Shown here one piece after another: positions 1 through 3,857 of a DNA stretch of 21,516 nucleotides (the stretch's first letter is position 1; each line of letters starts with the position of its first letter). A program made the position numbers and the translations under genes. Below the pieces are notes generated by a model, which did no database searches, was not told the origin of the DNA, and saw only the letters and a program-made list of their open reading frames with translations. Source of the DNA: a virus (lineage: Duplodnaviria > Heunggongvirae > Uroviricota > Caudoviricetes); the IMG/VR virus record IMGVR_UViG_2718218128_000003, positions 1 through 21,516 of that record. One strand, 5' to 3'.

Positions 1-137
1 CACAACATCCGAGGACAGCATCGTCCGCTGGCCCACAGAAGTCCGGAAAGTCATGGAAGGTCGTTGTTGGGAGGAGGTACAAATTCTCTCATGCAAAAAA
101 TACGTAAAATCGATAATAGCTGGAAATAATTCAATAC

Positions 138-198
138 ATGCACTCTCGAAAGTGCATCAGCCAACCGCAGAACGTTATTGCATACAACGTTTCTGCGG
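138..198 (-). terminator. Two adjacent stem-loops downstream of tfa (ATGCACT/AGTGCAT at 138-157; CCGCAGAACGTT/ACGTTTCTGCGG at 165-198); possible transcript end
   Basis: Inverted repeats read directly from the sequence just past the tfa stop; U-tract is weak, so this is tentative. Confidence 0.3.
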
Positions 199-212
199 CA
201 TAATCCCAATGA

Positions 213-797
213 TTACTCCCTGACAGGGTTCGTAGGCCACTCAATATCAGGTGCAGTTGATGTATCAACACGGTTCAGCAACACCCGATACTTTTTCCAG
301 GCTTCCAGCAATGAGGTTTCTTCCTCCGTTGCAATTTCCAGATCTGCAGCATCCTGAAGCGGCGCAATATGCTCACTGGCTGCCTGCATCAGGCTGTTTT
401 TTGTTTCTTCCGCCTCCCGGATCCGGAACAGTTTTTCTGCTTCCGTATCCTTCACCCAGGCTGTGCCGTTCCACTTCTGAAACTCCCCTTCCGGGGATAA
501 CCAGGTGACATTTTCCGGTAATGAGCCGAGTTCAGAAATAAATAACGCGTCGCCGGAAGCCACGTCATAAACCGTTTTACCCCGATGATCTTCAACGAGA
601 TGCCACGATGCCTCATCACTGTTGAAAACAGCCACGAAGCCAGCCGGAATATCTGGCGGTGCAATATAGGTACTGTTTGCTGGCAGACCTGTATGAGGCG
701 GAATATATGCGTCACCTTCACCAATAAATTCATTAGTTCCGGCCAGCAGATTATAAATTTTTATGGTCCGTGGTTGTTCACTCATTCTGAATGCCAT
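213..797 (-). CDS. tfaR: Tail fibre assembly protein (Tfa chaperone)
   Basis: 194-aa ORF ([24 protein letters not shown]...) matching the Rac/lambdoid Tfa family as recalled. Its ATG overlaps the upstream stop (TAATG). Confidence 0.85.
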
Positions 798-2125
798 TAT
801 GCAAGCCTCACAATATAGTTAAATGCGATGTTTTTGACAGTGTTTTCCGCGTTACCAGCAGCGTTAACGGTGATGGTGTGTCCATGTGAGCCAATCGCAA
901 CAGAGTGCGTATGAGCACCAATACCGACAGTATGTGCGTGAGCACCTGCAGATGCAGCTGTGCCGCTGACACTATGAGTGTGCGCTCCTGCAGCACTTGT
1001 ATTCACACTGGCCGCAGACACTACCTTATGTACTGACCCATTTTGTGACCACTGGCTGACTGCTGATGCGCCTGTGACACTATGAGTATGGTTTCCGGCA
1101 CTTGCGGCTGTACCGCTCACACTGTGCGTATGCGCCCCGGTGTTATTCGTGGATTTAGTGCCGTAATCAAACGACGATGTGGTTTTCGTCCCCAAATCCG
1201 TACTGGATGCGCTGGCGCTGTGGGTGTGCGATTTAATGCCGTCCTGTTCCTGAGACAATACGGCCCGACCACTGGCAGGTTTGCCCTTAATCGTCCAGCC
1301 ACGCATATCAGGGATCACGCCTGACGGATAAGCGGTTGCAAGTTTCGGGTAAGCAGATTTGTCAAAAGTCTGCCCCTGCATCAGGGCATAACCAGACGGA
1401 ACGGTATCTGATGGCCACGGGATTGGTGCGCCAGGCGGATAAAACTGCTCTGATGGCGTATAGAGTGAATAAACTGTACCGTCCGTTAACCCTTCCGGCT
1501 TATTAGCAGAATATGCTGGTGACGTATGAATAGTCACGCTGGCATTACTGGTATAATCCCATTGAATATTTACACCAGTCGCATAATTTCCGATTGCAAC
1601 GTAAATATCGTAAGTATCACCAGATGTATTGACCCAGGCAAAATTTGTAAACCCTGTCGATGTGCGCTGCCATAAAGCACCAGTAATCCCCTTCGGATTA
1701 CCATTACCGGGCAAAACATCCGTCAACAGTTCATCAATTTCTGTCGGGATGAAGCCTGTCAGGGAGACATCAAAATCAGCATTGATTAGGTCCGACAGCT
1801 CCATCCGCAACAGATCTTCATCCCAGCCAGCATTCATCGGCAGGCGATTATCTGCCAGGCGGTACGCCTTTTTCTGCTCATCCGTCAGGCCAGACAGAAC
1901 AATGACCGGAACAGAATCCATTTTGAGCATTTCAGCCGCCATAACACGACCGTGACCCGCAATAATTTCGCCCTTATCGTCAATCAGCACCGGATTAGTC
2001 CAGCCGAATTGCTTAATACTTTCTACCAGTTGTGCCACCTGCTCAGTACTGTGCGTCCTGGCGTTGTGCGCATACGGTGACAATTCTTGTAATGGGCGAT
2101 AGACTATCTTTAATTTCTCGCTCAT
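797..2125 (-). CDS. Chimeric ORF: N-terminal ParB-like nuclease domain (aa ~8-115) fused in frame to a side-tail-fibre C-terminus (tail-collar-like motif and His-x-His repeats)
   Basis: The N-terminus ([18 protein letters not shown]...[21 protein letters not shown]...LADNRL) has ParB/Srx-type motifs. From about aa 140 the sequence is tail-fibre-like ([36 protein letters not shown], then GAHTHSVSG repeats). It is translationally coupled to tfa. Confidence 0.7.
875..1231 (-). repeat. Imperfect in-frame repeats encoding seven His-x-His motifs (SHTHS, AHTHS, NHTHS, AHTHS, AHAHT, AHTHS, SHGHT) in the tail-fibre C-terminus
   Basis: Repeated nucleotide and peptide units ([15 protein letters not shown]) read directly from the translation. 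Confidence 0.7.
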
Positions 2126-2262
2126 ACAGCCTTGCTTTATGAATAAAACGCACCCCAGCAGCCAGTGCTACTGGGGACGGAGGTGTTGCTGGTAAAGTTA
2201 GGTATTGGATCAATGAGTGAGTCAACATAATATTAAACTCACAATTATAAATCAGCCATATA

Positions 2263-3720
2263 TTAGGAGCGCCAAAAAAAACCTGAAAACAATATAATAA
2301 CAGGATAAATTTCAAGGCGACCAAGAATCATAGCTATGCACATTAAACATTTTGCAATGTCATTAAGCACTCCGAATGACGATGCAGTAGCCCCAAAACC
2401 TAATCCCATATTATTAATACATGCAGCCACTGTTGCAAATGATGTAAGAAAATCATATCCCATACCATTTAACACCAGTATAAAAAACACCGTGAAGAGA
2501 GTATAAAGAAAAAAGAAACTCCATACAGACCTCATTACACGATCTGTAACTATCTTCCCTCCTACATTTACACTCAACAACGCTCTGGGATGAGAAAGCT
2601 GATTTATCTCGTGTTTGCTTTGTTTGAAAAGTATAAGAAATCGAAGTGACTTAATTCCACCACAAGTTGAACCTATACATCCCCCAAAGAAACTTGACAA
2701 CAGCAAAAACACTATCGTGTGCGTGGGCCAACTTGCATAATCCTGCGTAGCTAAACCATTATCAGTGAGCATGGAGCTGGCAAGAAAAAACGAATGAATA
2801 AAACTTCCATGCAAGTCATACATACCTATATGCCAGACCTGGAAAGAGGTAACAATGATCACCCCTAAGGCTATTAACAGAAAGAAACGAAGTTCAATAT
2901 CTCTGATTAAAGGTTTTATCGTTTTCCTGCTAATAACAATATACCAAAGAGTGAAGTTGAAAGCCGATAGCAGGGAAAAAGAACCAGCCACCAGCTCAAC
3001 CAAATAGTTATTAAAATATCCGATACTCTCGCTATGAGTTGAGAAACCACCAAGCGAAACTGTGGAAATCCCGTGACAAATAGCATCAAACAAAGGCATT
3101 CCTGCAAGTCTATAACAGACAATACAAGCAATACCTAATAAAGAATAAGTTATCCACAGTGTCCGTGACGTATCGGCCAGGCGGGGAGTGAGTTTGTCAT
3201 CCTTAAATGGCCCCGGCATTTCTGACTGATAAAGCTTTGCACCACCAATACCCAATAATGGCAATACAGCAACCGCCAGAACAATAACTCCTAAACCACC
3301 TATAAAATTTAACTGTGACCGATAGTACAAATATGCCCGAGGTAATGAACTAACATCATCAATTACAGTTGCTCCTGTTGTTGTTATTCCAGAAACCCCT
3401 TCAAACAGAGCATCAATGAACGTTAAATTAAGTTCTGAGTCAATCCATAAAGGGAATGCACTAATAACAGAAAACAAAATCCAAAACATTACAATTATAA
3501 TAAACCCATCACGGGTACGTAATTGAATGCCAGATTTCTTAGTTGTATACCACGCTCCGCCACCAATGCAAAAAAATATAACGAAAGTTATAAAGAAAAC
3601 AAACAGGCTTTTTTCTTTATAAAACAATGCTACAACCATTGGTGGCAACATTGAAAGACTATAGAGCCAAACCAAGAACCCACACATATGAGTAACAACT
3701 CTTACATGAGATGTATTCAT
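2263..3720 (-). CDS. trkG: Trk-system K+ uptake protein TrkG (prophage cargo)
   Basis: 485-aa polytopic membrane protein from ATG MNTSHVRVV...; the track ORF begins 6 codons earlier at TTG. Sequence and length match Rac TrkG as recalled. AT-rich codon usage. Confidence 0.9.
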   Translation of the reverse strand: MNTSHVRVVTHMCGFLVWLYSLSMLPPMVVALFYKEKSLFVFFITFVIFFCIGGGAWYTTKKSGIQLRTRDGFIIIVMFWILFSVISAFPLWIDSELNLTFIDALFEGVSGITTTGATVIDDVSSLPRAYLYYRSQLNFIGGLGVIVLAVAVLPLLGIGGAKLYQSEMPGPFKDDKLTPRLADTSRTLWITYSLLGIACIVCYRLAGMPLFDAICHGISTVSLGGFSTHSESIGYFNNYLVELVAGSFSLLSAFNFTLWYIVISRKTIKPLIRDIELRFFLLIALGVIIVTSFQVWHIGMYDLHGSFIHSFFLASSMLTDNGLATQDYASWPTHTIVFLLLSSFFGGCIGSTCGGIKSLRFLILFKQSKHEINQLSHPRALLSVNVGGKIVTDRVMRSVWSFFFLYTLFTVFFILVLNGMGYDFLTSFATVAACINNMGLGFGATASSFGVLNDIAKCLMCIAMILGRLEIYPVIILFSGFFWRS

Positions 3721-3857
3721 ATCTAAATATTCTTTCAATTATAACCACCTTGCTGCAATATTATGATTATACTGTATAAAATTTAACTCCTCTTAGATCT
3801 TACTTCACTGTTCCTTATGAAACAATCATCAAAATGAATCATATTGTAGTTAAGATT

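Follow-up and report, generated by a model that had tools for sequence, protein, structure and literature searches.

An in-frame fusion of a ParB-like gene to a side-tail-fibre gene in a defective Rac-like prophage, joined at a recurrent TA breakpoint

Genes and features of the locus

On the minus strand of the window, i.e. the whole stretch of 21,516 nucleotides of viral DNA analysed here, a chimeric open reading frame (ORF) lies between trkG and the tail fibre assembly chaperone gene tfa (Table 1). The earlier note on this DNA had read the ORF as an in-frame chimera of a ParB-like protein and a tail fibre, coupled to tfa. Its coordinates, strand and length of 442 aa agree exactly with our analysis, both halves are matched by Pfam as well as PHROG profiles, and the coupling is seen as a TAATG overlap at position 797, which is made up of the stop codon of the chimera (799-797) and the start codon of tfa (797-795). 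The same stf-tfa overlap exists in Escherichia coli S42, hence it is a native arrangement that is unchanged in the window. No promoter-like site was found between the terminator-like hairpin upstream and the ATG of the chimera. An ORF without its own promoter behind such a hairpin would be transcribed only via antiterminated late transcription.

Table 1. Features at the chimeric locus, with positions in the window
Feature	Position	Strand	Remarks
tfa, tail fibre assembly chaperone gene	213..797	minus	start overlaps chimera stop by 1 nt
Chimeric ORF	797..2125	minus	442 aa; ParB-like residues 1-140, then Stf residues 669-971
Segment derived from stf 3' end	797..1704	minus	Stf residues 670-971 and stop; 908/912 nt identical to S42 stf 3' end
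gp37-like His-x-His tip, residues 215-442	800-1483	minus	2XGF match
Collar domain, residues 232-279	1289-1432	minus	Pfam Collar
TA, recurrent join point at ParB-gene nt 420-421	1705-1706	minus	within shared GGTA
Deletion junction, 4-nt GGTA (ORF nt 418-421)	1705..1708	minus	common to both parent genes; alignment to S42
Segment derived from ParB/Srx gene (ORF nt 1-421)	1705..2125	minus	420/421 nt identical to S42 (L003 7168-7588)
Pfam ParB_N domain, residues 23-90	1856-2059	minus	profile match
Terminator-like hairpin	2153..2176	minus	10 pairs, 7 G-C, then T-rich tail; between trkG stop and chimera start
trkG, upstream neighbour	2263..3720	minus	placed as in intact Rac-like prophages; ORF listing extends frame to TTG at 3738

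The N-terminal part carries the ParB/Srx motifs which the earlier note had quoted. In the Pfam search ParB_N (PF02195) was assigned to residues 23-90 with 27.3 bits, just above its gathering score of 26.3, the PHROG profile search placed PHROG 620 (ParB-like) on residues 1-146 (E 1.5e-70), and residues 7-93 matched solved Spo0J/ParB N-terminal domains. The conserved arginine-rich GxxR nucleotide-binding motif is present as AGHGR at residues 56-60 and is invariant in 11 homologues. The likeness to the CTP-binding domain of ParB/Spo0J (e.g. PDB 1VZ0) comprises this GHGR motif and the match over residues 7-93, but this match is a weak one, the C-terminal module of the native phage protein is different, and its gene lies beside glycosyltransferase and terminase genes and not beside ParA.

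The claimed tail-fibre-like C-terminus with its collar-like motif and His-x-His repeats was likewise found. Pfam assigned Collar to residues 232-279 and Phage_fiber to residues 327-340, PHROG 295 (tail fibre) covers residues 156-442 (E 1.6e-143), and residues 215-442 match the receptor-binding tip of T4 gp37 (2XGF, E 4.3e-89). The whole solved gp37 fragment is aligned and its His-x-His repeats are also present in the chimera. However, the tip of the chimera follows on a ParB domain and not on a fibre shaft, and it originates from a lambdoid Stf that is served by Tfa and not by gp38/gp57. The ParB-derived sequence stops at residue 140, so that the chimera lacks the C-terminal module of the native 263-aa protein (approximately residues 147-263, ...AAERHTVFNFSRIADYYAH...), which is conserved and elsewhere also exists as a stand-alone protein. 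Stf residues 1-668, i.e. the N-terminal tail-attachment domain and the shaft, are deleted, and no N-terminal fibre domain was found by Pfam in the 442-aa ORF. Judged from the sequence, the ParB N-terminal domain and the gp37-like receptor-binding tip would both be complete in the product, and the ParB C-terminal module and the part that attaches the fibre to the tail would be missing.

Origin of the junction

The unfused arrangement is found in E. coli S42 (NZ_CP010236.1, 1257572-1285051), whose Rac-like prophage supplies both parent genes in the colinear order trkG, 263-aa ParB/Srx gene, terS, terL, portal, capsid, tail genes, J, lom, 971-aa stf and tfa, with approximately 24 kb of head and tail genes between the ParB-like gene and stf. 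According to the nucleotide alignment, the window corresponds to S42 minus one continuous segment of 23,972 bp, which S42 still holds, and both flanks are 99.5-99.8% identical. Aligned separately to the S42 genes, ORF nt 1-421 differ from the ParB-like gene by one mismatch and ORF nt 418-1329 differ from the 3' end of stf by four. The two halves share a GGTA, and the junction lies exactly between codons 140 and 141, well inside the range of codons 120-150 that the earlier note had guessed; its proposal of a deletion that fused the ParB-like gene to stf in frame agrees with this alignment. Since the junction TA stands at codon phase 3/1 in both parent genes, the reading frame was kept. The lost DNA comprises the 3' half of the ParB-like gene, the gene for a TET-associated glycosyltransferase, terS, terL, all head and tail genes, J, lom and the 5' two-thirds of stf. 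An ancestor with an intact Rac-like, headful-packaging lambdoid prophage underwent one deletion of 23,972 bp, from ParB nt 421 to stf codon 669. No substantial observation speaks against this deletion origin. The large terminase subunit belongs to the T4 type (Terminase_6N/6C), and its nearest phage relatives are Jersey- and Dhillon-like phages, which use the headful packaging route.

The layout of the cryptic Rac prophage of E. coli K-12 (trkG-ynaK-ydaY-ynaA-lomR-stfR-tfaR-pinR) agrees with the statement of the earlier note that ynaK follows trkG and is separated from stfR by several remnant genes. K-12 Rac belongs to the same prophage family, with the same gene order and integrase end, and it also lost its morphogenetic genes via internal deletions that truncate the ParB-like gene. 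In contrast to the window, the ParB-like gene of K-12 is broken at nt 254, a second deletion runs from the tape-measure gene to lom, both joins lie at non-TA sites, and a full-length stfR is kept. The window shows instead one larger deletion at the hot spot of nt 421 described below, which yields the fusion ORF, and DNA from the sitABCD side is found where K-12 has pinR.

Decay product or selected gene

With a probability of roughly 0.93, the 442-aa ORF arose as a by-product when the prophage decayed, via a deletion that fused the ParB-like gene to stf. The exact protein is absent among approximately 15 billion sequences, no full-coverage homologue was found among 5.8 billion clusters and none exists as a native gene in an intact phage or genome, and the junction of the window occurs in no complete E. 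coli genome. Because the exact protein and the junction are unique to the window and no native full-length homologue was found, we read the fusion as a recent by-product and not as a selected gene. Both Pfam domains occur together in only one other protein (P0001, 643 aa), which is also a deletion fusion, but a different one. By itself, the fusion is ordinary prophage decay. Both possible refutations considered in the earlier note, a native single gene of the same architecture in intact phages or an N-terminus without ParB-like character, are contradicted by these searches and by the domain assignments.

We give next to no credence to the alternative that the chimera is functional and under selection, be it as a receptor-binding protein re-used in combination with a ParB domain or as a two-domain protein of native origin. 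It could be argued in its favour that the ORF is intact and in frame, that the tfa chaperone gene was kept, that whole domains exist on both sides of the junction, and that other in-frame ParB-fibre fusions are found, e.g. the 643-aa P0001 on 5 contigs. Against this stand the uniqueness of the exact protein and the fact that sibling fusions differ in junction as well as partner, some being out of frame and some leading to lom, tfa, terL or capsid genes. Moreover, the ORF lacks its own promoter and follows a terminator-like hairpin, and the window has neither a tail-attachment domain in the product nor tail genes. Selection for in-frame products was rejected, because 12 of 21 events are in frame, which equals the expectation of 53% for TA-to-TA joins. 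As such joins are in frame 53% of the time, the in-frame state needs no special explanation and is no evidence of function. Most likely, the chimera has no function, since it would have no tail to attach to. Counter to this view, it can be noted that the ORF is undamaged, that its native tfa coupling is kept and that two complete folding units are retained.

A recurrent breakpoint in the ParB-like gene

The deletion found in the window is one of many. One identical nucleotide of the ParB-like gene, nt 421, is the breakpoint of at least 32 different junctions, and in seven other complete genomes, representing five distinct partner sites, the junction lies at this same nucleotide. Among the best 120 protein clusters, 96 break away from the intact protein, half of them (48/96) after residues 140-142, while 17 breaks are spread across the 120 codons that follow. 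A 60-nt window across nt 421 is truncated in 74 of the 1050 complete E. coli genomes with the site (about 7%), compared to only 10 of 1081 genomes for a control window 61 nt upstream, which corresponds to a seven-fold enrichment at the genome level. Other, scattered breakpoints are also present within the gene, and a second left-end site exists at nt 496. Comparison of these genomes and protein clusters shows that the left breakpoint is a recurrent hot spot and not random, with many independent deletions in other E. coli strains starting at the same TA. A literature search on Rac/ynaK, on a ParB-like gene with pac, on hot spots of prophage decay and on TET-associated glycosyltransferases with ParB found nothing relevant.

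The sibling fusions, such as the 643-aa ParB-Stf protein of F2_81, PE164 and E105 (P0001), the 229-aa protein of FDN-24, and the ParB-Lom and ParB-Tfa fusions, share with the window the left breakpoint after ...GCCCGGTA, the rightward deletion and the TA at the partner site. However, they differ in their right breakpoints and stf alleles, and several are out of frame. One ancestral fusion followed by allele swapping was rejected as an explanation, because it cannot yield new partners that abut the same base; moreover, the F2_81-type join lies 21 nt further into stf than that of the window.

At the join, TA is found in register at 25 of 29 partner sites compared to a background of 4.3% (p ~6e-28, computed on the first 27 partner sites, 23 of which have TA). 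The partner flanks loosely match CSGN-TA-YCGG, and CGG follows the join within 6 nt at 11 of 27 partner sites, compared to a background of 8% (p ~4e-6). A G at position -3 occurs in 8/27 partner sites, which is background, and homology past the TA is no commoner than chance. Where the partner site has TG, products read either TA or TG. With a matrix built from partner sites only, nt 421 ranks 20th and nt 496 ranks 18th of 1825 TA sites. As a consensus, the flank pattern is weak, and for many sites that fit it well no event was seen. The mapped events share one orientation, and all of them run rightward over 0.36-28.5 kb; no inversions were seen among them, no genome keeps the right flank only, and no protein was found that joins foreign sequence to residue T141. 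Strain TC24, initially a candidate for an inversion, turned out to carry a deletion that ends within the inverted cassette of a Pin-type segment. In strain YZ_2_2, two further TA-TA deletions start away from the site in the ParB-like gene, one of them in the early region.

Several features that could mark the site were rejected. Secondary-site recombination by IntR is not supported, as the Rac att core (TTGTTCAGGTTGTATTGTTCTTTCTT), derived from the ends of the K-12 prophage, is unrelated to it. A hairpin or cruciform was dismissed, as there is no significant inverted repeat and folding is unremarkable (z-score -0.7). An insertion-sequence-like pseudo-end was also excluded, since the window contains no inverted copy of the flank and no IS is located at any junction. 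To our knowledge, the site bears no convincing likeness to Hin/Gin/Pin crossover sites, Ter, Chi, gyrase or restriction sites. In its general behaviour it resembles hot spots with one fixed end, among which we count Ter, rolling-circle nick sites and in-situ cos cutting in lambda lysogens: one end is nucleotide-exact, the other is variable, and the process is polar. We know of none, however, that needs a TA at the partner site or acts in a ParB-like phage gene.

Possible origins of the breakpoint

It is very improbable that the breakpoint results from ordinary random illegitimate, i.e. microhomology-mediated, deletion without any special site or enzyme, being shared merely by chance or common descent. 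Spontaneous deletions typically occur with short microhomologies, the two Rac deletions of K-12 lie at 2-nt microhomologies (AA and CA) at non-TA sites, and scattered other breakpoints do exist in the ParB-like gene. But such a process is at odds with one identical left nucleotide for 32 or more distinct right-hand partners, with the seven-fold enrichment over the neighbouring control window, with the lack of homology past the TA above chance level (G at -3 in 8/27) and with partner flanks that are non-random on either side of the join; common descent cannot make new partners which all start at the exact left base. Hence, we regard this explanation as largely refuted. Conservative site-specific recombination is possible, if unlikely. 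The recombinase would have TA as its 2-bp crossover core and would use a good site within the ParB-like gene together with quasi-sites downstream; it could be a serine recombinase, such as a Pin-type invertase or a resolvase, or else a transposase that targets TA. The nearly obligatory 2-nt identity at the join (TA at 25/29 partner sites) fits such an enzyme, as does the mixed outcome at TG partner sites, which is compatible with a 2-bp overlap. The flanks (CSGN-TA-YCGG) show a loose dyad symmetry that includes the deleted arm, therefore the whole partner site is recognised, and a pin gene adjoins tfa in K-12, LR-64-1, FDN-24 and TC24. Nevertheless, a palindromic TA core within symmetric sites should equalise inversions and deletions, and likewise leftward and rightward events, of which neither inversions nor leftward events were seen. 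The site is, as far as we know, unlike the Hin/Gin/Pin crossover consensus, the Rac att core is unrelated, no inverted-repeat element end is nearby, and neither the window nor S42 has a pin gene at the locus. Conservative recombination, if true, would produce a reciprocal excised circle with the junction ...NTA directly followed by CAGGAAATG.

Improbable, too, is a replication arrest or nick site. In this case the fork would be stalled or broken by a protein that binds the quasi-palindrome CCGGTACAGG; this could be the ParB-like protein, with a parS-like site located in its gene. The nascent 3' end (...GGTA) would then switch template to a downstream TA. The left end is indeed nucleotide-exact, the left arms of the partner sites partly match the ...CCG-TA end, and the deletion hot spots known at Ter sites and rolling-circle origins likewise have one end fixed. 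The polarity also fits the travel of the fork through Rac in K-12 coordinates. On the other hand, template switching driven by annealing would need more than 2 nt, joins with longer homology are not favoured, jumps of 20-28 kb would be long for such a process, no hairpin or other structure exists at the site, and the CGG enrichment in the right arm of the partner sites is left unexplained.

We tentatively favour a polar cut by a site-preferring nuclease. In its widest form, to which we give less than even odds, this view makes nt 421 the point where a DNA-processing activity not described before, polar and specific for TA, enters or cuts; it could be the phage's packaging nuclease or a recombinase, and it would repeatedly strip morphogenetic genes from Rac-like prophages. 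The nuclease would cut the TA in the ParB-like gene, and the process would have rightward polarity; our best guess for the enzyme, and a doubtful one, is the terminase of the phage itself. It would begin in the late region, travel in the packaging direction and then make a second cut, after which the TA ends would be ligated. The process could occur in lytic growth, when the deleted genome would be headful-packaged and then lysogenise a new host. All events run towards terS and terL, and the site lies approximately 1.5 kb upstream of the terS start. Several points speak against a terminase: pac sites are usually found within terS, we know of no terminase that leaves 2-nt TA ends, and the unpackaged end is normally degraded after a pac cut, which here is the retained one. 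Among ten phage records with the gene, apparently arbitrarily started assemblies, no virion end was found at nt 421. The two TA-TA deletions of YZ_2_2, starting elsewhere than at the ParB-gene site, are a further observation against a terminase. As the ParB-like gene is paired with the gene for the TET-associated glycosyltransferase upstream of terS, it may be part of a module for DNA modification rather than of the packaging genes proper.

Implications

The chimera is a well-documented example of how prophage decay makes in-frame fusion ORFs; annotation pipelines treat each of these as two separate pseudogenes. Of greater importance than the chimera itself is the recurrent breakpoint, and nt 421 could mark the site of packaging or loading in Rac-like phages. 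Should an enzyme cause the deletions, the domestication of prophages in the Rac-like family would be partly directed and would have a testable mechanism. If a TA-specific activity is indeed at work, much of the apparent decay of this widespread family would be stereotyped and enzyme-driven, routinely yielding proteins in which the ParB N-terminus is fused to new partners.

Anatomy and origin of the chimeric ORF

The earlier note had described the ORF as a ParB-like N-terminus joined to a tail-fibre C-terminus and coupled to tfa, and this observation is confirmed in every detail. The ParB-like portion comprises about the first 140 residues, where Pfam ParB_N matches residues 23-90 (27.3 bits, gathering score 26.3), PHROG 620 ('ParB-like partition protein') covers residues 1-146 (E 1.5e-70) and residues 7-93 match solved Spo0J/ParB N-terminal domains; NCBIfam parB_part also matches, with a score under its cut-off. 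The tail-fibre part carries Collar (Pfam, residues 232-279) and a Phage_fiber repeat (327-340), belongs to PHROG 295 (tail fibre; residues 156-442, E 1.6e-143) and aligns, through residues 215-442, with the whole solved fragment of the T4 gp37 receptor-binding tip 2XGF (E 4.3e-89). The claimed coupling is seen as an overlap of the stop codon with the tfa start.

Features of the window around the chimeric ORF
Feature	Positions	Strand	Remark
Right arm	1-212		sitDCBA after tfa
tfa	213-797		start overlaps chimera stop codon as TAATG
Chimeric ORF	797-2125	minus	442 aa
Hairpin	1681-1703	minus	directly 3' of junction, in stf-derived part
Junction GGTA	1705-1708		common to both parent genes
Terminator-like hairpin	2176-2153	minus	between trkG and chimera start codon

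The window is the remnant of a Rac-like prophage with intR, recE, lysis genes and trkG. The unfused arrangement sought in related genomes exists in E. coli S42 (locus L003), in the order trkG, a 263-aa ParB/Srx gene, a TET-associated glycosyltransferase, terS, terL, portal, head and tail genes, J, lom, a 971-aa stf, tfa and sitDCBA. Compared base by base, nt 1-421 of the ORF differ from the S42 ParB-like gene by one mismatch and nt 418-1329 from the final 912 nt of S42 stf by four; with the GGTA in common, what separates the window from S42 is a loss of 23,972 bp. This shows that a single deletion, with TA joined to TA, made the chimera, in which ParB residues 1-140 run directly into Stf residues 669-971. 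Hence, the proposed in-frame fusion by deletion was right as an interpretation too, and the junction expected at codons 120-150 falls after residue 140.

The K-12 Rac layout given in the earlier note is correct. The K-12 deletions sit elsewhere, one joining the ParB-like gene at nt 254 to ydaY and the other the tape-measure gene to lom, both at non-TA sites unlike the window junction, and K-12 has pinR-ynaE-ynaM where the window lineage (the window, L001 and L003) has sitDCBA, an iron/manganese transporter, within the right arm of the prophage. The hairpin beside the junction reads GGTAATCC-GAAGG-GGATTAC; the F2_81-type junction lies 21 nt further on, at its other foot, possibly by coincidence.

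In intact prophages the ParB-like gene is followed by the glycosyltransferase (L003 7952-8884; PF20691, E 1.2e-34; PHROG 842), which is deleted in the window. Just upstream of terS, this pair resembles a DNA-modification module rather than a partition system. Homologues of the N-terminal domain are wholly divergent past about residue 135, so codon 140 marks a domain boundary. The C-terminal module (...AAERHTVFNFSRIADYYAH...) is found by itself, as a separate protein, in distant taxa and, in Yersinia similis, fused to a lysis protein (database proteins P0249, P0252, P0254 and P0251). The public record P0242 bears translated sequencing-adaptor letters (AVSYTHLDVYKRQ) at both ends, an assembly artefact.

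Gene or scar

A search of about 15 billion proteins found no copy of the exact 442-aa protein, and none of 5,426 complete E. coli genomes has its junction; the best match having both domains, P0001, is another fusion (643 aa). The event must be recent, because both halves are nearly undiverged from S42. With the terminator-like hairpin upstream and no promoter-like site found between it and the start codon, transcription would need antiterminated late read-through. The ORF has stayed undamaged, and each of the two retained parts is a whole folding unit. The chimera stands outside the intact ParB-like family, because the C-terminal module is missing, and is not a functional Stf, because the N-terminal two-thirds are missing; the tail-attachment part of the fibre and every tail gene are lost from the window. 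From the sequence we conclude that it is probably a scar, a by-product without demonstrated function. Its open frame says nothing about selection, since the TA spans the boundary between codons 140 and 141, a codon phase shared by 53% of the TA dinucleotides in the late genes, and 12 of 21 observed joins are in frame. It must be mentioned that RefSeq annotates each of the fusion ORFs at loci L002, L005-L007 and L010-L012 as a pair of pseudogenes, 'ynaK, missing C-terminus' (258 nt in every case, after K-12) and 'phage tail protein, missing N-terminus', which masks intact fusion frames of 229-643 aa.

A recurrent break at nt 421

The closest relatives of this deletion are sibling fusions at the identical nucleotide, nt 421 of the ParB-like gene. 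In F2_81/PE164/E105, STEC383/LR-64-1 and FDN-24 the gene is joined to a different place each time, always breaking after ...GTTTTGCCCGGTA, and the same nucleotide is broken in EC12 (partner sitA), 23CRST024 (partner lom) and TC24. Residues 1-140, used as a protein query, gave 575 matches; in the best 120 cluster representatives, breaks follow G140 in 33 clusters, T141 in 8 and G142 in 7, and are spread over the 120 codons of residues 143-263 in only 17. Breaks at residues 141 and 142 keep the same TA register in all mappable cases, and residue 141 of the fusions is nearly always I, M, N, K, S or T, i.e. a codon beginning with A, as a break after GGTA predicts. Moreover, a 60-nt segment across nt 421 was truncated in 74 of 1050 matched genomes, compared to 10 of 1081 for a control segment (nt 321-380), and among the matches listed for the former, four of five truncated copies stop exactly at nt 421. 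These data show a recurrent left end, exact to the nucleotide. Copies truncated there also occur in ECONIH5 (NZ_CP026206.1, 191 kb) and 0H24 (NZ_CP081775.1, 304 kb), on large plasmid-sized records, not chromosomes.

Joining rules and polarity

For 29 distinct partner sites, i.e. the right-hand DNA joined to the gene, we determined the position in unfused DNA. Every event is a deletion, and all share a single orientation, extending 364 nt to 28.5 kb rightward into the glycosyltransferase gene, terS, terL, head, tail, lom, stf, tfa or sit genes. A TA in register with that of the ParB-like gene occurs at 25/29 sites, compared to a 4.3% background (p about 6e-28, computed on the first 27 sites, 23 with TA), and homology past the TA is no more frequent than chance. 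Base composition around the partner sites departs from random on either side of the join, favouring C at -6, C or G at -5 and G at -4, then a pyrimidine at +1, C at +2 and G at +3 and +4; in 11/27 sites CGG is present no further than 6 nt past the join (background 8%, p about 4e-6). The ParB-gene site, CCGG-TA-CAGG, agrees with this loose dyad-symmetric pattern, and by a weight matrix from partner sites only, nt 421 comes 20th among 1825 TA sites. A minor left end at nt 496 (L003 7663; GGATA|TCAG; three partners), 18th by the same matrix, also obeys the TA-TA rule. Since strain YZ_2_2 (L001) has two further TA-TA deletions (junctions terS|stf and, in the early region, 812|4750), the rule extends beyond nt 421. 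We found no inversions, no genomes keeping the right flank only and no proteins joining foreign sequence to T141. Rightward polarity is thus strict, and site preference at the partner weak.

Possible mechanisms

The responsible enzyme can only be inferred. The Rac integrase was rejected, its att core being unrelated, and DNA structure or an insertion-sequence-like end at the site were excluded. Conservative recombination around a 2-bp core would explain both the TA rule and the symmetry of the flanks, but not why inversions and leftward events are absent. Fork arrest with template switching accounts for polarity and the exact end, and fits poorly with homology limited to 2 nt and with the preference in the partner's right arm.

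We tentatively favour, with a probability of about 0.3, an inherently directional, site-preferring nuclease, the phage terminase being the obvious candidate. Its large subunit is of T4 type (Terminase_6N/6C), nearest to Jersey- and Dhillon-like phages, which package by the headful route, and nt 421 is part of the late operon and precedes terS. The terminase would cut first at the ParB-gene TA, translocate rightward and cut again at another TA, and ligation of the ends would yield all observed features. If this happened in replicating phage DNA, headful packaging would bring the deleted genome into a new host, where it could settle as a defective prophage because int, att and immunity genes remain. 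However, pac sites usually lie within terS, a pac cut is normally followed by degradation of the very end that is kept here, the prophage has TA-TA deletions at other places too, and no terminase is known to leave TA ends.

Deletion hot spots with one fixed end occur at Ter sites, at nick sites of rolling-circle origins and through in-situ cos cutting; we take these to be the closest parallels. No description of the nt-421 site was found in the searchable literature. Statistical support for the recurrent, polar breakpoint with its TA-to-TA joins is solid. As a deletion fusion of a ParB-like gene and Stf, the chimera is ordinary in itself, and it is the breakpoint that more merits a dedicated study.
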